From NCBI GenBank assembly GCA_963750165.1, contig CAVVPN010000011.1, positions 1,696,001 to 1,760,000 of the forward strand: DNA of 64,000 nt, given 5' to 3'. A program made the translations under genes and the position numbers. The notes beneath the pieces are model-generated. The model saw nothing but the letters and a program-made list of their open reading frames with translations, searched no databases and had not been told where the DNA came from. This document shows positions 50,058 to 61,863 of this stretch, in pieces; positions within the stretch are counted from its first letter, which is position 1; every line of letters starts with the position of its first letter. Origin of the DNA: an uncultured Gemmataceae bacterium. Lineage in GTDB: Bacteria; Planctomycetota; Planctomycetia; Gemmatales; Gemmataceae.

Positions 50058-51740
50058 CTAATGTGCCATCGCCACGGCGGGTTCGCTGACCATCCGGCCG
50101 TTGAGCCAGCGGTCCAGATGGCCGAAGAGCGGGCTGACCTGATCGCGGGTGACGGCGCCCATGGTGGCGATCTGCACCATGCGCTTCTCGGCGAGGTAGC
50201 CGCTCTGGCCGCCGATGGCGAAGCCCCACAGCCGGCAGCGGGCCACGAAGGCGTTGGAACCCTCCATCCCCGGCGGCGCGAACGTGGTCACCACCGGGCA
50301 GGCGTGCTCATCGCGCGCGAGCGGGTCCAGGCCCAGGCGGCGCAACTCGCCGCGGACGTAAGCCCCCAGCTCGGCGTAGCGGTCGTAGGTGGCCCGGGCG
50401 CGCGCCGGCGTCGCGTACTCCTGCAGGGCCGCCTCCAGGGCGCGCAGCGTTGGCGACGGGAAGGTGTAGCACGGCCCCTCGCTGGCCAGCGCCGCCACCA
50501 CGTCGAAGTAACTCGGCACCCGACTGCGGTCCAGTGTCTTCAGCGCCTCGGCGTCGGCGAAGATCAGCGCCCCGCCGGCGAACGAGCCGAGCGCCTTGCC
50601 AGTCGAGCCGGTCGCCATGTACACGTCGCGCAGGTCGAGCGGCACGGCGCCAAGGCTGCTGATGCAGTCGATGCAGACGCGGACGCCGTGCTTGCGGGCC
50701 ACACGGACCAGGCCAGGGAGATCGTTGAGCACGCCAGTGCTGGACTCCTGATGGACGCCCCAGACCCAGCTGCCGGCCGGCTCCTCGCGCAGCGCCGCCT
50801 CCACTTCGTCGAGGTTCCAGGGTTCGCCCCAGGGCCACTCCAGCAGCCGCGGTTGCAGGCCAAAGCGCGTCGCTTGCCGGGCCAGGCGCTGGCCGAACTC
50901 GCCAGTGCTGAGCAGCACGCCGCGACCGCGGCCAGCCGTCGCCGCCAGCGTCGCCGCCACGCTCTCGTTGGCCAGCGTGCCGCTGCCGTTGAGGATGGCC
51001 GCGGCGGGCGCGTTGACCAGCTCCGCCAGCTGGCGACGCACGGACTGGAAGCGACGGATGAACTCGGGGCCGCGGTGGTAGATCGGCGGCTCGTGGAAGG
51101 CGTCGCGCACCGCCTGCGACGTGGTGACCGGCCCCGGCAGCAGACACACCGTCTCGCGCGGCGGCAGTCCCTGACGGCGGACATGCCCCTCCCACATGCG
51201 CTTGACGCGCTGAATCTTGGCCGGCAGCGCCGCCACGTCGAGCATCATCGGCACGAACGCGGCGTTGCCACAGTGGACCGCCGGGCCGAGCGGCACGAAG
51301 CCGATTTTTTCGTACAGGTCGAGCCGCGACTCGACACCGGAGATGAACAGGTGCGTGTAGCCGTGCGCCTGCGTGTAGTGCTCCAGCGACCAGATCAGGC
51401 CGAAGAACAGCGTGCTGTTGCGCTCCTGCGGCTCGATGGCCAGCAGCCGCACCTCCAGCGGCCGGGTGCCGGGCCGCGTCAGGATGCCCGGGTCGGGCAG
51501 CCGGTCGGCGACGGAGAACGGTGGCTGATCGTGGACGCTGAGCATGCCGACGACGCGGTCGTCGCGCAGGACGATCAGGTAGTCGTTTTTACTGTGAAAT
51601 TTATCGACGAGCATCCCGGTGCCGGTGTCGGGGTGCTGCGGAATTTCGCTGACGAAGGTCCGATAATTGAGGCAGTGAATCTGCTCAAATTCCTGCCGCG
51701 TGTCCGCACATTTGAAGACGTAGTGACCGACTCGCAACAT
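50058..51740 (-). CDS. GNAT-like acyltransferase fused to a class V PLP-dependent enzyme (560 aa)
   Basis: N: NYRTFVSEIPQH, LEVRLLAIE, LYEKIGFVPLG; C: LLPGPV, GSGTLANE, HQESSTGVLN, DCISS, STGK(PLP Lys)ALG; SD ggaggtgg. Confidence 0.85.
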   Translation of the reverse strand: MLRVGHYVFKCADTRQEFEQIHCLNYRTFVSEIPQHPDTGTGMLVDKFHSKNDYLIVLRDDRVVGMLSVHDQPPFSVADRLPDPGILTRPGTRPLEVRLLAIEPQERNSTLFFGLIWSLEHYTQAHGYTHLFISGVESRLDLYEKIGFVPLGPAVHCGNAAFVPMMLDVAALPAKIQRVKRMWEGHVRRQGLPPRETVCLLPGPVTTSQAVRDAFHEPPIYHRGPEFIRRFQSVRRQLAELVNAPAAAILNGSGTLANESVAATLAATAGRGRGVLLSTGEFGQRLARQATRFGLQPRLLEWPWGEPWNLDEVEAALREEPAGSWVWGVHQESSTGVLNDLPGLVRVARKHGVRVCIDCISSLGAVPLDLRDVYMATGSTGKALGSFAGGALIFADAEALKTLDRSRVPSYFDVVAALASEGPCYTFPSPTLRALEAALQEYATPARARATYDRYAELGAYVRGELRRLGLDPLARDEHACPVVTTFAPPGMEGSNAFVARCRLWGFAIGGQSGYLAEKRMVQIATMGAVTRDQVSPLFGHLDRWLNGRMVSEPAVAMAH

Positions 51741-51842
51741 CCTGGACCACCTCCGACGGTGCCTCGCCCTGGCGCGCGGTGAGGGACGCAACGCCCTTCG
51801 GCGCTTGAAGGGCGCAGCCGCGCAGCACCTCGTATGGCAGAG

Positions 51843-51871
51843 AGGTTATAAACCTTTGCGGTAGTTTGCAA
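51843..51871 (-). promoter_or_regulatory. Putative sigma70 promoter (duplicated near 57516-57544)
   Basis: Minus strand TTGCAA-17nt-TAACCT, conserved in both copies. Confidence 0.5.
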
Positions 51872-52096
51872 GGACTTGCTGAAAAGAGAACGATCAGAAG
51901 CTCGCCGCTTCGTTAAACCTTCTTGTTTGTAGGTTCTGCGAAAGATCTCCGGCAAGGGAGCAGGCGTTCAGGCCGTCGGAAAAGACCGCGTGTTCAGTGT
52001 TCGGAGTTCGGAGTTCGGTTTTCCGTGGTCCACGGACAGCTGCTCGATTATGATGCGGATGGGGTCTTGTCACCGAACACCATTCCGGAGGAATCC

Positions 52097-57217: not shown

Positions 57218-57303
57218 TAGGCATTAGTCATTAGTTTTCAGACATCAGTCCCTGGTCATTAAATTCTGTCCTAATGACTAATGACTAATGACTAATGATT
57301 ATT
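57218..57303. repeat. Inverted heptamer tandem repeat (CATTAGT)n / (ACTAATG)n, second copy
   Basis: gcattaggcattagtcattag ... ctaatgactaatgactaatgactaatga; same unit as 30711-30783. Confidence 0.8.
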
Positions 57304-57309
57304 ACATAT

Positions 57310-57696
57310 GCAGCACGCCGCGACCGCGGCCGGCCAGCGACGCCAGCGTCGCCGCCACGCTCTCATTGGCCAGCGTGCCGCCGCCGTTGAGGATGGCCGC
57401 GGCGGGCGCGTTGACCAACTCCGCCAGCTGGTGGAGCACGAACTGGAAGCGACGGATGAACTCGAGGCCGCGGTGGTAAAAGGGCGCAGCCGTCCCGGCA
57501 CCTCGTATGGCAGAGAGGTTATAGACCTTTGCGGTAGTTTGCAAGGACTTGCTGAAAAGAGAACGGTCTGAAGGCCGCCGCTTCGTTAAACCTTCTTGTT
57601 TGTAGGTTCTGCGATAGATCTCCAGCAAGGGAGCAGGCGTTCACGCCGTCGGAAAAGACCGCGTGTTCAGTGTTCGGTGTTGTGGTCCGCGGACAG
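57310..57696 (-). pseudogene. Deleted duplicate of the GNAT-PLP gene and its upstream region
   Basis: 57310-57478 matches 50912-51080; 57480-57696 matches 51808-52039; the intervening ~727 bp is absent. Confidence 0.9.
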
Positions 57697-57885
57697 GCCG
57701 ACGCCCCCACAGGGTTTCAACAATGCAGAATGCTTCTTTTTTATGAAGTTGCTGACCTGTTCCGACGAATGGATTGATGTATACTATACAAGAGAACACT
57801 AAACCTGCATTCGCCCTCAAACGCAGCGTAATCAACCAGTGGTCGCCGGCCCATTGCGGCCGGCCCTGTTCCGAGGAGGTGCATC

Positions 57886-58243
57886 ATGAAGAAGTCCGAA
57901 ACCCCGGCTGCGGACACCGCGCCGAACCGCCCCAGCGTCCAGGAGCTGACGCAGGCGCTGGCGGAGCCGTTCGAGTCCGCCGAGGTCAAGTTCAAGCCGG
58001 CGGTGGTCAGCGGCAATCGCGCCATGGCGCTGGCCTACGTCGATGCGCGCGTCATTCAAGACCGCCTGGACGATGTGCTCGGCGTCGAAGGTTGGCAGGA
58101 CGACTACGAGTGCCGCGAGGACGGCAGCGTGATTTGCCGGCTGCGGCTGCGGCTCGGCGATGAGTGGGTCACCAAGGTGGATGTGGGCGGCCCCAGCGAG
58201 CAGCCCGACGGCGGCGACCGACTCAAGGCGGCGTTCTCCGACG
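57886..58243 (+). CDS. Rad52/Rad22-family (DdrA/Sak-like) single-strand annealing protein, exon 1
   Basis: SD gaggagg; LAEPF...VKFKP, AYVDARVIQDRLDDVLG, WVTKVDVG, LKAAFSD^. Confidence 0.9.
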
Positions 58244-60693
58244 GTGCGCCGTGTCACGGCTGATCTCATCACCGCTTGAAGCGGTAGGGACTTGACCGAA
58301 GTCCCTGGGCCAGCGCCTAAGCCGAGTCCGAAAGGACGGAGCAAAAATAGCATGGCGTGCAGAAGCGTGGAGTGGAGTAACCGCAATACAAACTGCCACG
58401 CAGGCCCGCGTCCCAAGGCTAAGGCTAAACTGCTTGAATCCGAATCCCCAAGCGCTTATGAAGCGAGCCTCCGGAAACGCGGTTGATTACCGGATGCGGT
58501 TGGTATGCGAGGAAAAGTGCGTCGGGTTCCCCGCAAGGTCAAGCCAACCGGCGACCACAAGACAGTGAGTTCAAGGGGATGAGTCGGAAGCCTACAGGAC
58601 GCTAGAACGTGAGAGCAGTTCGGAACACGGGATTGCCTACGGGGGGCGACCCCTATGGCAACGGAGCCGCCGTAGTAGTCCGAGGTCGGGAAAGCCGGCC
58701 ACATGGCGAAGGGCGGCAGGTGTCTGAAGACCTGGCATACGAAGGCGGTGCGTGATGCACAACACCCAACGTAAAGACGCGATCCACGAGGAACGCGGCA
58801 GGCGAGGTCTGAAACTGGAACGTCTGTATCGTGAACTCTACGACCTGGACCGCTACTTGCAGGCGTACGGCAAGCTGTACCGCAACGACGGTGCCATGAC
58901 GCCCGGAGTGACGACGGAAACGGTGGACGGAACGTCGGTGGAGAAGATGCAACTGATCATCCGGCACCTGCGGGATGGCAGTTTCGGCTGGACGCCGACC
59001 AAGCGAATCCACATCCCCAAGAAAAACGGGAAGATGAGGCCGCTGGGATTACCGACGTGGTCCGACAAACTGGTCCAAGAAGTAATCCGCTCCCTCCTGG
59101 AGCCTTACTACGAGGCCAAGTTTCAGGACAGCAGCCACGGGTTCCGACCGAACCGAGGGTGCCACACCGCCCTGCAAACCTGCAAGCAGAAATTCAGGGG
59201 GGCGAGTTGGTTCATCGAAGGGGACATCAAGGGATGCTTCGACAACATCGATCACGATGTCTTGCTCGACATCCTGCGGGAATCCATCGACGATGAACGA
59301 TTCGTTCGGCTCGTCAAGGACATGCTGGAAGCGGGGTATTTGGAGGAATGGCGGTATCACGACACCCACTCGGGGACTCCCCAAGGCGGCGTGATCAGCC
59401 CCCTCCTGGCCAACGTCTACCTGCATAAACTGGACGAGTTCGTGGAAGACGTCCTGATCCCTCGACACACCCGAGGAGGAACAAGGAAGCACAACCCGGA
59501 ATACCGGAGCATCTGTGACCAGATGAAGAAGGCCAAGAAGTACGAGGACTGGAACAGCTGGTGGGAACTAAAGAAGGTGCAACGCACCCTCCCGTCCCTC
59601 AACCAAATGGACCCAGCCTTCCGGAGACTGGCCTACGTCCGTTATGCCGACGACTTCCTCCTCTCGTTCACGGGGCCAAGGTCAGAAGCCGAAGACATCA
59701 GGCAGCAAATCGGTGACTTCCTGAAAAGCACCCTGAAGCTGCAACTGTCCGAGGAAAAGACTTTGATCACCCACGCGAGGACCGAGAAAGCACGATTCCT
59801 GGGGTATGACATCACGATTATGCACGAAAATAATCAGATGTCAGCCGGCAGAAATCACGCCGGACGGTTCTTCAAACGGTCGATCAACGGGGGCGTCATG
59901 CTCTCGGTGCCCTGGGAAAAGATCGAGGCGAAGTGCCATGACTTTATGAAAGGCGACAAAATCCGCAAGCGACTCGACCAGACAACCAACGAGGACTTCT
60001 CCATCGTGGCCTGGTACGGGATCGTCTTCCGAGGCGTGGCCGAATACTACTGCATGGCACACGACCGGGCGAAGAAGCTGTCAAAGCTGAAAAACGTCAT
60101 GCAAACGTCGATGCTAAAAACTCTGGCTGCCAAGCACAAGACGAGTGTCGCTGCAATGGCAGGCAAATACAGAGTCCAACTTCAGACGCCAAATGGCGAA
60201 TACACAGCTTACCAAGTGGTGATTCCGAGAGAAGGAAAACTCCCGCTCATCGCCACCTTTGGGGGCTTCGGGCTCAGACGGCAGGACAAGGACATCAACG
60301 ACGCCCCGTCCCGTAACCGGAACGGGCGAACTGAAATCCTGGAACGACTTCTGGCAGACCAGTGCGAATACTGCGGAGCAGAAGGGGACTGCGAAGTCCA
60401 CCACATCCGCAAACTGGCGGCACTGCTGAAGCAGAAGAAGGTCACAGGATGGAAGCGGTTGATGACCATCAGAAAACGAAAGACGTTAGTTCTCTGTCAG
60501 AAATGCCACTCGGCACTACATGCCGGGAAACTGGACTAACAGAGACTCCGGAGACACTGGAGAGCCGGATGCGATGAAAGTTGCACGTCCGGTTCGGAGG
60601 GGGGCCATCGGAAAAGGGACTCATCCACGTTCGGGAACTGGTTACTGGTTGACTGTTCCCGGTATGAGTCACCTCGCCGGTGGCCTACCCTAC
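58244..60693 (+). mobile_element. Group II intron, subgroup IIA (ML-like), 2450 nt
   Basis: 5' GTGCGCC; domain V 60562-60595 with AGC triad; domain VI with bulged A at 60687 (-7); 3' AC; EBS1 58520-58526 complementary to the exon 1 end; removal restores the host frame. Confidence 0.95.
58755..60539 (+). CDS. ltrA: Group II intron-encoded reverse transcriptase/maturase with HNH endonuclease (LtrA-like)
   Basis: IPKKNGKMRPLGLP, SHGFRPNRGCHTAL, IEGDIKGCFDNIDH, GTPQGGVISPLLANVYL, YVRYADD, FLGY, CEYC..EVHH..RKTLVLCQKCH. Confidence 0.96.
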   Translation: MHNTQRKDAIHEERGRRGLKLERLYRELYDLDRYLQAYGKLYRNDGAMTPGVTTETVDGTSVEKMQLIIRHLRDGSFGWTPTKRIHIPKKNGKMRPLGLPTWSDKLVQEVIRSLLEPYYEAKFQDSSHGFRPNRGCHTALQTCKQKFRGASWFIEGDIKGCFDNIDHDVLLDILRESIDDERFVRLVKDMLEAGYLEEWRYHDTHSGTPQGGVISPLLANVYLHKLDEFVEDVLIPRHTRGGTRKHNPEYRSICDQMKKAKKYEDWNSWWELKKVQRTLPSLNQMDPAFRRLAYVRYADDFLLSFTGPRSEAEDIRQQIGDFLKSTLKLQLSEEKTLITHARTEKARFLGYDITIMHENNQMSAGRNHAGRFFKRSINGGVMLSVPWEKIEAKCHDFMKGDKIRKRLDQTTNEDFSIVAWYGIVFRGVAEYYCMAHDRAKKLSKLKNVMQTSMLKTLAAKHKTSVAAMAGKYRVQLQTPNGEYTAYQVVIPREGKLPLIATFGGFGLRRQDKDINDAPSRNRNGRTEILERLLADQCEYCGAEGDCEVHHIRKLAALLKQKKVTGWKRLMTIRKRKTLVLCQKCHSALHAGKLD

Positions 60694-61181
60694 CGCTGAA
60701 GCGCGCCGCGGTCAAGTTCGGCATCGGCCGTTATTTGTATCGACTGCCGAACCAGTGGGTCGATTACGACATGCAGAAGCGCACCTTCGCGCGGACGCCG
60801 ACGCTGCCGGCGATGTACCTGCCGAAGAAGGCCGAGCCGGTACTTGAGGCCGCGGCCCCGGCACCGAAGCCCACCGCGAAACCCGCGGCCAAACCGGCGC
60901 CGAAGACCGCCGCCAGGGTCGCGGCGCACACACTGCCGAGCAGCGGCGACGAGTTCCAGCGGCGGTTGTACGACTATGACGCCAAGCTGGCACGCGAGGG
61001 CGTGTGTCAACCGGGTGAACTGGTCAAGCGCGTCGTCGAGGCGGGCGCGAAGGCAGGCTTCGACCCGGACCTGGCCACCTGGGACGCCCGGGGCATCACC
61101 CTGGCTGCGGAGCAGACCAAGGTGTTCGAGGCACACGCCCGGCAGCGGCCGGCACCGCCGCAGCGCAAGGAAGTCGCGTAG
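60694..61181 (+). CDS. Rad52/Rad22-family protein, exon 2
   Basis: ^ALKRAAVKFGIGRYLYRLPNQWVDYD, Ala/Pro/Lys linker, C-terminal domain, TAG at 61179-61181. Confidence 0.9.
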
Positions 61182-61186
61182 GGAAA

Positions 61187-61294
61187 AGGATTTCACCACA
61201 GAGAACGTGGAGAATGCGGAGAAAAAACAAAGAATGGCAATTTAATTCTTTTGTCGTTTCTCCGCGCACTCCGCGTTCTCTGTGGTGAAATCCT
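61187..61294. repeat. Long imperfect inverted repeat with 9-mer periodicity between convergent genes
   Basis: aggatttcaccacagagaacgtggagaatgcggagaaa ... tttctccgcgcactccgcgttctctgtggtgaaatcct. Confidence 0.8.
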
Positions 61295-61299
61295 CTTCG

Positions 61300-61863
61300 T
61301 TAACCGCCCGCCGAGCGCTGCACCTCCTGCGCCGTCTTCAACGAACTCTTCCAATCATCCACGCCCGAGCGCCAGTCGTCCACCTGCTCCGAAGGAACGA
61401 CCGCGACCAGCGTGCCGGTGACGTTCGCTAGCACCGGCGCGATCGCCGATTTCTCCAGCAATTCGTCGGTGACGGTGTGGGGGAAATTCATCATGGCCAG
61501 GAAGATGCCGCCGAGCACCACGGCGGTCTTGCCAGCGCCGAGGACGCCGCCAAGGACGCAATTCATCGTCTGCAGCTTGATCTCCTTGAGCCACTTCTCC
61601 GCGGCCAGTGAGGCGAAGTGGAACGCCAGGTACACGACCACGAACACCAGCAAATAAGCCAGCGCCCCGCTGACGCGCGGGTCCGCTTCCTGGAGCACCG
61701 CGTCGGACAGGGCACTGCTGGCCCATTCGTGCAGGGCGACCGCGGCGTAGACGCCGACACTGAGGCCGACAACGCGCGCCACCTGCATGAGCAGCCCGGA
61801 GATGGCGCCGAAGGTTGCCCCGACGCCGAGTAGAACCAGGATGATGGTGTCGAGCCAGTGCAT
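61300..61863 (-). CDS. cvpA: CvpA-family (colicin V production) membrane protein
   Basis: WLDTIIL..G...GL, four TM helices, N..LGGVLGAGK, S.IAP. Confidence 0.82.
   Translation of the reverse strand: MHWLDTIILVLLGVGATFGAISGLLMQVARVVGLSVGVYAAVALHEWASSALSDAVLQEADPRVSGALAYLLVFVVVYLAFHFASLAAEKWLKEIKLQTMNCVLGGVLGAGKTAVVLGGIFLAMMNFPHTVTDELLEKSAIAPVLANVTGTLVAVVPSEQVDDWRSGVDDWKSSLKTAQEVQRSAGG

Follow-up and report, generated by a model that had tools for sequence, protein, structure and literature searches.

A likely mobile class ML group IIA intron at a conserved codon of a planctomycete Rad52-family gene with predicted LexA boxes

Why should an intact group II intron sit in the most conserved motif of a chromosomal gene for a Rad52-type protein? 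The question is raised by a locus of an uncultured Gemmataceae bacterium (assembly GCA_963750165.1, contig CAVVPN010000011.1, positions 1,696,001 to 1,760,000; this whole stretch of 64,000 nucleotides is called the window here). Host gene and insert together occupy positions 57886 to 61181 of the + strand and, as the initial annotation had it, joining position 58243 to 60694 restores a frame of 846 nucleotides, or 281 amino acids, with one stop codon at its end. The GC content of the insert is 57% versus 69% in both exons. Left unspliced, the frame runs into a stop six codons inside the intron and yields a truncated product of 125 amino acids, in line with the earlier claim that the full-length protein requires splicing. 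The chromosomal setting could be confirmed as well: of 16 flanking proteins none matched a phage family for structure or replication, and four match generic families of enzymes or repeats. Synteny is lacking, with cvpA adjoining the gene in only 2 of 72 orthologue loci with flanks of about 1.5 kb. Rfam matches to miRNAs at 61150-61335 reflect a repeated hairpin and were rejected as miRNAs. The favoured reading, to which a probability of roughly 0.7 is given, is that of a selfish, likely mobile ML group IIA intron which homes to one conserved codon of planctomycete Rad52 genes and is likely co-induced by DNA damage via predicted LexA boxes. The features are collected in Table 1.

Table 1. Features of the interrupted gene, its intron and its promoter (window positions)
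Feature	Position	Strand	Description
Second, weaker predicted LexA box	57770..57783		Overlaps -10-like hexamer; full matrix 15.4, symmetric core 7.8
Predicted LexA (SOS) box, RWAC-N4-GTWY type	57785..57798		Matrix score 20.1; symmetric core 11.2
Exon 1 of Rad52/22-family gene	57886..58243	+	358 nt; PF04098 24.6 bits, model 3-55; intron-less orthologues run through the site; last 6-7 nt are IBS1
Group IIA intron, class ML	58244..60693	+	2450 nt, GTGCG start, AC end; phase 1 in Ala codon of S-D-A-x-K-R motif; single copy in genome
delta (58517-58519) and EBS1 (58520-58526)	58517..58526	+	Terminal loop of covarying stem; complements first 3-4 nt of exon 2 and last 7 nt of exon 1; pairing read from sequence
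Intron-encoded protein	58755..60539	+	594 aa; RT, maturase X, DNA-binding, HNH-type endonuclease; from Pfam, LtrA match, dN/dS
Domain V	60562..60595	+	Catalytic AGC triad; from RF00029, fold
Domain VI	60598..60693	+	Bulged branch A at 60687, AC end; longer than in relatives; from RF00029, fold
Exon 2 of Rad52/22-family gene	60694..61181	+	488 nt; rest of motif, Pro/Ala linker, C-terminal domain; from Pfam model 119-149, PHROG 1097 positions 105-168, orthologues

The interrupted gene had been assigned to the Rad52/22 family, and a profile check of the spliced protein agrees with this. Against Pfam Rad52_Rad22 (PF04098) exon 1 scores above the cut-off of 20.3 bits and exon 2 follows collinearly below it, a profile of 50 intron-less homologues matches the joined protein continuously over positions 3-142 (E 1.9e-77), and PF04098 is present in all 120 homologues among the matches listed. 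Nine of the 17 invariant columns in the alignment of the 50 homologues fall within 21 residues around the insertion codon, so that the description of this motif as the most conserved one was correct. A PDB sequence search with one orthologue as query gave no match and a profile query reached RAD52 only at E values of 0.2-0.4; given these weak matches, the fold assignment was decided by structure comparison. The predicted core of an intron-less orthologue (pLDDT 93) compares with RAD52 at a Z score of 13.0 and an rmsd of 2.5 over 122 aligned residues, and with Mgm101 and Sak at Z scores of 11.3 and 10.3; this orthologue model (Foldseek E 2e-6) has the Rad52 N-terminal fold. The host protein is a member of the Rad52/22 family with a predicted role in single-stranded DNA annealing. 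The label DdrA-like, which it had also been given, holds at this family level only: phage annealing proteins are close to it (38-45% identity; PHROG 1097, E 5.7e-37), and DdrA is reported in PMC515370 as showing no annealing in vitro. Human RAD52, Mgm101, phage Sak and Deinococcus DdrA belong to the Rad52 superfamily. DdrA is damage-induced according to PMC515370, a likeness to the SOS control predicted here, the link being the shared Pfam family only.

Judged from its sequence, the insert is a group IIA intron of class ML, intact both as an RNA and in its reading frame for an LtrA-like RT-maturase-endonuclease. All parts of the anatomy named at the outset were recovered, namely the GTGCG start, domains V and VI, the AC end and a full RT-maturase-HNH frame with YADD. 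The boundaries agree with 5' GUGYG and 3' AY and restore the host frame, domain V carries its triad and domain VI its bulged A. A search with group II models had been proposed; Rfam RF00029 covers 60560-60693 at 65.7 bits (gathering threshold 40), and the match ends exactly at the 3' splice site. Domains V and VI fold with a z of -4.4, the bulged A lying at -7, and 58244-58720 with a z of -3.1. EBS1 and delta share one loop complementary to both exons, which places the RNA in subgroup IIA as annotated. This loop is kept across 14 aligned introns while its closing stems vary on both sides, and 24 of 58 predicted pairs are altered on both sides; against the loop reading, RNAalifold places three pairs within the EBS1 loop. 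A single change in the EBS1 of the window fits its own Ser codon, with six of six positions paired versus five of six for the common form, and this EBS1 pairs at 5/6 or better with empty alleles in two families (45/48 and 29/29). For EBS2-IBS2 there is a 5-bp candidate near 58475, its register being unconserved in relatives.

Pfam finds RVT_1, Intron_maturas2 and an AI2M-like HNH domain in the intron-encoded protein, with YADD at residue 297 (59643-59654) and both CxxC pairs present. Residues 22-587 match LtrA (5g2x) with 408 bits and an E value of 4.8e-121, other intron RTs being far weaker (132-139 bits, about 1e-38), and NCBIfam TIGR04416 scores 281.5 bits (E 9e-84), just under its cut-off of 300. 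Class ML is assigned by grouping with LtrA in match scores, rather than in a tree of all reference classes, together with the RT, X, D and En domains; this class corresponds to IIA RNA in the class table of PMC4424553. The protein has dN/dS values of 0.08-0.34 in all domains, with purifying selection on RT and endonuclease in seven of seven pairs. Ll.LtrB with its protein LtrA from Lactococcus lactis, equally ML and IIA, has the same RT-X-D-En architecture, which is matched near full length, and the same combined loop of EBS1 and delta, and both introns interrupt a conserved motif of a gene acting on DNA. The host of Ll.LtrB is however a plasmid relaxase, whereas the intron of the window lies in a Rad52-family gene on the chromosome whose promoter has a predicted LexA box, its target sequence is different, and neither conjugative nor phage genes were observed in its vicinity.

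In a quick tree of 60 rows the intron falls into a clade of 21 (SH-aLRT 100); this clade with its putative conserved exon-binding loop is new here. A search of related genomes for intron-less alleles and for introns at the same codon, as suggested in the initial annotation, yielded both. Among 148 genomes of the same family with the gene the intron was seen in one and in none of the other 147. Four of the 20 other clade members are flanked by Rad52 exon sequence at this same codon, on both sides in L027 and L110, on the 5' side in L114 and on the 3' side in L115. The insertion codon, as read from these junctions, is shared across two families. Intron proteins are 68-69% identical where the cores of these host genes are about 43% identical, a difference that speaks for horizontal spread. 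Of the 20 relatives, ten lack a usable exon, the pair L106/L123 sits in an unrelated small gene and the flanks of L102, L104 and L112 are unassignable, so that a description as dedicated to Rad52 rests on five loci. Conserved codons elsewhere in Rad52 genes are occupied by two other ML lineages, and the one Rad52 gene seen to be interrupted among 85 Isosphaeraceae genomes carries two introns. Sister introns of the second of these (L135, L141, L147) lie outside Rad52 genes, and for L173 the boundary was not found. Domain I DNA was searched in 401 genomes of the class and found only in the window's own genome, the sole further match being a 49-nt fragment away from any Rad52 gene, and 16 odd-looking Rad52 matches proved, apart from G456, to be frameshifts, contig ends or intact genes and held no introns. 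The Pfam model, with two matches in 401 genomes of the phylum as compared with 18 of 36 family genomes for a protein query, lacked sensitivity and was set aside in judging the distribution. A phage vector was considered and rejected, the seven loci from a viral scan all being distant (38-49% identity) and outside the clade.

A link to DNA damage had been proposed, and it gains ground from the host promoter, which has two copies of a motif common to lexA and recA. The motif matrix was trained on 42 intron-less orthologue promoters, the window excluded, and resembles cyanobacterial and Gram-positive LexA boxes (PMC2248561, Table 5); in the literature searched no description of a LexA box for Gemmataceae-like planctomycetes was found. 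The symmetric core score of the stronger box is reached at only 15 of 9.6 million positions of the genome, lexA being the top site. Scores of at least 9 were obtained for 23 of 29 lexA, 11 of 29 recA and 8 of 30 Isosphaeraceae rad52 promoters, as compared with none in coding sequence and, after local shuffling, at most 5 (lexA), 4 (recA) and 3 (rad52). A palindromic predicted operator common to lexA and recA promoters is what a LexA regulon would have; 18 of 29 recA promoters stay under the threshold, and several top sites of the genome precede genes unrelated to repair. With these predicted boxes in the host promoter, host gene and intron would likely be induced jointly by DNA damage.

For a selfish intron homing to this codon the following course may be envisaged. 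Cleavage of LexA would lift repression and give the precursor RNA, as the motif suggests. From this precursor the intron protein would be translated and aid folding of the ribozyme, EBS1 would pair with the end of exon 1 and delta with the start of exon 2, complementarities which are seen in the sequence, and the intron would leave as a lariat via the bulged A, by analogy with Ll.LtrB. The ligated mRNA has the open frame for the 281-residue protein and would be translated into a Rad52-fold product. The lariat-protein particle would then reverse-splice into an empty allele, the endonuclease cutting the other strand and the RT copying the intron, as is expected from the family. The site favours the intron because it is kept constant from family to family by amino-acid constraint and because nothing short of exact splicing restores the gene. 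SOS timing would be passively inherited from the host gene. A point against the proposed damage link is that constitutive SOS did not raise retrohoming of Ll.LtrB in E. coli (81-87% of wild type), the intron in that work having no LexA promoter (PMC3636086).

A stronger form of this proposal, which appears unlikely though worth weighing, is that the lineage was selected to live in a LexA-controlled Rad52-type gene. The SOS response would then make homing particles at a time of DNA breaks, single-stranded DNA and incoming empty alleles, and the product of the spliced message, an annealing protein, would help to complete the intron's own insertion; if so, the three independent invasions of Rad52 genes would reflect selection for timing beyond a conserved target. 

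According to PMC7306698, introns of classes B, CL1, E and ML 'hijack' replication, recombination and repair neighbourhoods, and expression timing with repair genes was proposed there; Rad52 and DdrA are absent from one of its supplementary files. That work is a statistical neighbourhood analysis, whereas the window locus gives a specific promoter motif and target and offers a concrete test, with an intact intron, a defined target left unoccupied in most relatives and a predicted operator which can be mutated. Group II introns had been found in repair genes before, and their rarity as implied in the initial annotation was overstated: PMC2504315 lists cases in Geobacillus recA and in radC, mutS, polC and uvrD/rep genes of B. 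cereus. There too the product of a chromosomal repair or recombination gene needs splicing, in another host family and phylum, while the clade described here shares a codon across two families and three lineages occur in one gene family. Rad52-family genes are added as a repeated intron target, including a bacterial gene with two introns, along with a candidate LexA box for Gemmataceae-like planctomycetes and a new family of IIA introns whose exon-binding rules are known and which might be retargetable in high-GC bacteria.

Less probable again is a parasite of a conserved site with no link to damage, the motif being mainly a promoter element or the site of another regulator and Rad52 one of many DNA-metabolism targets of ML introns. 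Half of the motif does overlap a -10-like hexamer, related ML introns are spread over many different sites in Dehalococcoidia, and the clade pair in the unrelated gene would fit as well. Yet the symmetric core, scored without the -10 tail, still places lexA at the top of the genome and picks out the lexA promoters counted above, a count attained by none of 300 column-shuffled matrices.

That the host keeps the intron as a device, splicing efficiency gating the repair protein after damage, was an initial suggestion and is quite improbable. Such a switch could draw on the truncated product of the unspliced frame, on the lowering of host mRNA by spliced group II introns through EBS-IBS retargeting (PMC6003770) and, according to PMC2504315, on the proposal of a similar regulatory role for the recA intron of Geobacillus. 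Against it stand the rarity of the intron among orthologues in both families and the mismatch of intron and host divergence, by which it appears to move between divergent alleles; if the gene is damped at all, a cost is the simpler explanation. The endonuclease of group II introns is not needed for splicing, and here it is conserved and under selection.

Hardly credible, finally, is a recent insertion which splices poorly or not at all in a dispensable gene: in 104 of 252 family genomes, many being incomplete, no copy of the gene was found, several alleles from MAGs have frameshifts and no spliced RNA was seen in metatranscriptomes, which contained relatives only, but neither exon is damaged, their GC3 (0.89 and 0.86) resembles that of the host, all splicing elements are present with an EBS1 perfectly fitting its allele, and the two-intron Isosphaeraceae gene still has an open frame of 252 amino acids when joined. 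Five metatranscriptome runs contained 5-6% of the words of the locus. Contigs from four runs join the sequence up to 58243 to exon 2, with different letters at the joint; they therefore come from other organisms, are indistinguishable from intron-less alleles and were rejected as proof of splicing.

Nine contigs of the intron clade, either DNA or RNA, start and stop within the intron; this would fit excised intron RNA but was not counted as such.

Removal of the intron restores a frame of 846 nt (281 codons, single terminal stop) from two pieces of a gene, as the initial annotation had read it, and the Rfam group II model matches 60560-60693 with 65.7 bits, its match ending at the 3' splice site. 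The intron is a real, well-formed element. It has a GC content of 57% versus 69% in each exon and is present in one copy in the whole genome (9.6 Mb, 12 contigs). Domains V and VI fold with z = -4.4 and contain an unpaired A seven bases before the intron end, and the 5' 477 nt fold with z = -3.1. In domain VI (60598-60693) an additional hairpin roughly doubles the length found in the clade relatives. In the EBS1 loop a heptamer is complementary to the final seven bases of exon 1 and the bases 5' of it to the initial three to four bases of exon 2, a layout which, judged from the sequence, is the IIA arrangement. An alignment of 14 introns shows the loop almost unchanged and its closing stems varying on both sides, with two-sided changes in 24 of the 58 predicted pairs of the EBS1 region; RNAalifold also places three pairs within the loop. 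As the unspliced frame terminates six codons inside the intron, full-length protein is predicted to require splicing.

The intron protein contains YADD and both CxxC pairs. Its nearest solved structure is LtrA (408 bits, residues 22-587), other intron RTs of solved structure, matched solely over the RT part, reaching 132-139 bits, and it was therefore assigned to class ML, which pairs with IIA RNA (PMC4424553, excerpt). The TIGR04416 score of 281.5 is slightly below the cut-off of 300. Across RT, X and endonuclease, dN/dS was 0.08-0.34 in all seven pairs.

Features of the interrupted rad52 locus (window positions)
Feature	Position	Strand	Basis or content
Motif copy	57770-57783	.	motif match
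Motif copy	57785-57798	.	motif match
Exon 1	57886-58243	+	joined-frame reading
Intron, 2450 nt	58244-60693	+	joined-frame reading, Rfam
EBS1/delta terminal loop	58513-58527	+	complementarity and covariation
Intron protein, 594 aa	58755-60539	+	RT, maturase, AI2M-like HNH domains
Exon 2	60694-61181	+	joined-frame reading

In collinear order, exon 1 corresponds to the first third of Pfam Rad52_Rad22 and exon 2 to the last, and the joined protein gives an unbroken match to a profile of 50 intron-less homologues (E 1.9e-77). The insertion codon is a nearly invariant Ala within the block where 9 of the 17 invariant columns lie. A core model of an intron-less orthologue (pLDDT 93) matched human RAD52 with Z 13.0 (rmsd 2.5, 122 aligned), Mgm101 with 11.3 and Sak with 10.3, the next row being at 6.8. 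Homologues bearing names are from Gemmataceae, to which the host therefore probably belongs; phage annealing proteins are also near (PHROG 1097, E 5.7e-37), with 163 phage records matched and top identities of 38-45%. From the earlier description as a Rad52/DdrA-like DNA-annealing gene, membership in the Rad52 family is established and kinship to DdrA stands at the level of the shared family; annealing is a putative role only, as DdrA showed end protection and no annealing in vitro (PMC515370, excerpt). The gene was found in 148 of 252 genomes of the window's family and in 85 of 121 of the family of an Isosphaeraceae MAG with a two-intron rad52. The 16 flanking proteins yielded no match to a phage structural or replication family, in agreement with the initial annotation. 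Four genomes of the window's family (G032, G583, G551, G498) carry four to six Rad52-family paralogues each; these probably sit on mobile elements, by which empty target sites or the intron could pass from cell to cell.

Searched with the intron protein, genomes gave 75 loci, metagenomes 79 and viral sequences 7, the genome and metagenome loci coming from the best 80 of 189 and the best 80 of 355 matches. In a quick-method tree of 60 chosen rows (L111 omitted as a duplicate of L027) the window's intron falls within a 21-member clade on a long branch (SH-aLRT 100). Rad52 exons border the intron at the window's insertion codon in four of the 20 other members, on both sides in L027 and L110, 5' in L114 and 3' in L115. 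L113 has a 13-nt flank compatible with this site, L106 and L123 are an identical pair in an unrelated small gene where EBS1 pairs only 4/6, L102, L104 and L112 have flanks lacking a gene assignment, and a usable exon is absent in ten. A single base separates the EBS1 of the relatives from that of the window, whose form pairs completely with the window's own Ser codon. Intron-less alleles were found as well: the window's EBS1 pairs at 5/6 or better with 45 of 48 in its own family and with 29/29 in that of the Isosphaeraceae MAG. Between the two families intron proteins are 68-69% identical versus 43% for the host cores, which together with the purifying dN/dS fits an element that is still mobile. 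Occupancy is low: no other clade-level match was detected in 251 genomes of the window's family (23 matched the generic 3' part of the query only) or in 400 genomes of the class, and of 184 protein matches the 150 that were listed showed no other frame broken at the insertion site; as MAG assemblies can drop introns, occupancy figures are lower bounds. In some clade members domain IV holds, ahead of the intron protein, an additional small ORF of 62-78 aa (L106:2633-2870; L113:457-645, the latter with an early stop). At L106:4790-4879 domain V is broken by a sequence starting like another group II intron, possibly a twintron.

A motif search in 42 intron-less orthologue upstream regions, the window left out, found RWAC-N4-GTAY followed by ACTA, scoring above 10 in 38. 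The 14-base core was symmetrised because its right half overlaps a -10-like hexamer, and the window's score was then attained at only 15 of 9.6 million genome positions. The genome's top site lies upstream of lexA (G000:C11:29247) and recA (C3, upstream of 1503924) is within the top eight, but several other top sites are upstream of genes unrelated to repair. Lower-scoring sites lie before a priA-like gene (C7) and a radical SAM gene (C12), both names resting on sequence appearance only. Among relatives, scores of at least 9 were reached by 23/29 lexA, 11/29 recA and 8/30 Isosphaeraceae rad52 promoters, kin being non-independent, and by 0 coding controls. In 100 local shuffles at most 5, 4 and 3 promoters, respectively, did so, and none of 300 column-shuffled matrices equalled the observed count. 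The motif is similar to cyanobacterial and Gram-positive LexA boxes (PMC2248561, Table 5, excerpt). RWAC-N4-GTWY (window, G000 and L291-L348) is a candidate LexA box of Gemmataceae-like planctomycetes, common to lexA, recA and rad52 promoters, a description of which was not found in the literature searched, and LexA control of the window's rad52 promoter is predicted. Directly upstream of this promoter, 57310-57681 is a partial duplicate (92-94% identity) in which two separate pieces of the GNAT-aminotransferase locus (50912-51088, 51808-52008) are fused. Two dispersed repeat families occur around the gene. One, at 57225-57303, is an inverted repeat built on a heptamer and present many times in the genome. 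The other, a long hairpin directly after the rad52 stop (61180-61305), has 92 BLAST pieces genome-wide, one copy lying just downstream of lexA.

With a probability of roughly 0.7 we favour a selfish mobile IIA intron: protein constraint would hold the homing site constant, the intron would home to that conserved site, splicing would restore the rad52 gene, and LexA cleavage would induce the intron together with its host gene. That there is no real damage link is improbable beside the promoter counts. Constitutive SOS in E. coli did not increase retrohoming of Ll.LtrB, although that intron was not under a LexA promoter (PMC3636086, excerpt); this speaks against the SOS state itself being of direct benefit. 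A switch kept by the host, as the initial annotation had considered, could build on the predicted need for splicing and is quite unlikely; spliced introns can lower host mRNA (PMC6003770, excerpt), so the repair gene is expected to bear a cost. An effective knockout of the gene is very improbable. The RNA data found were soil metatranscriptomes with only a small share of matching sequence; the four of five that were analysed contain relatives of the intron, and also joined forms that differ in sequence at the junction and may come from intron-less alleles.

Group II introns have been published in recA, radC, mutS, polC and uvrD-type genes (PMC2504315, excerpt), and for the classes B, CL1, E and ML it has been suggested that they time themselves with repair genes (PMC7306698, excerpt). 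In the literature searched, which took in neither subscription journals nor the dedicated database of group II introns, no report was found of such an intron in genes for Rad52, DdrA or Sak or in planctomycete repair genes; Rad52 and DdrA are absent from one supplementary file of PMC7306698, which may hold only part of that study's neighbour tables. New here are the Rad52-family target, an intron lineage sharing it and the predicted SOS promoter, which makes the idea of repair-gene 'hijacking' testable.

Rad52 genes have been invaded repeatedly. In the Isosphaeraceae MAG (L216; G456:C85:84200-89400, minus strand) rad52 is interrupted by two intact ML introns of 2417 and 2423 nt, unrelated to each other and separated by a 177-nt middle exon, and removal of both opens a 252-aa frame. 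The second intron lies upstream at another conserved codon and belongs to an unrelated ML lineage, its protein being 48% identical to that of the window-clade type. A third lineage is found three codons upstream of the window's site in a Dehalococcoidia locus, where the intron protein contains a stop and the host gene, assigned as Rad52-type from its motif with no match in the profile search, is disrupted. Dehalococcoidia/SAR202 loci (L030-L098) contain many related ML introns within coding sequences at numerous sites, often several per few kb, one recurrent site resembling a helicase Walker A motif; head-to-tail tandem copies of ML introns occur in L043, L044 and L057. Other ML-like introns of the family are inserted directly into domain V-like sequences of older introns (L222, L224, L226, L245). 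The sole other intron RT match of the window's genome (L220; G000:C11:809000-813600, minus strand) is a group II intron that lacks an endonuclease and is disrupted by an opposite-strand insertion of about 2.45 kb which resembles a serine-recombinase element.
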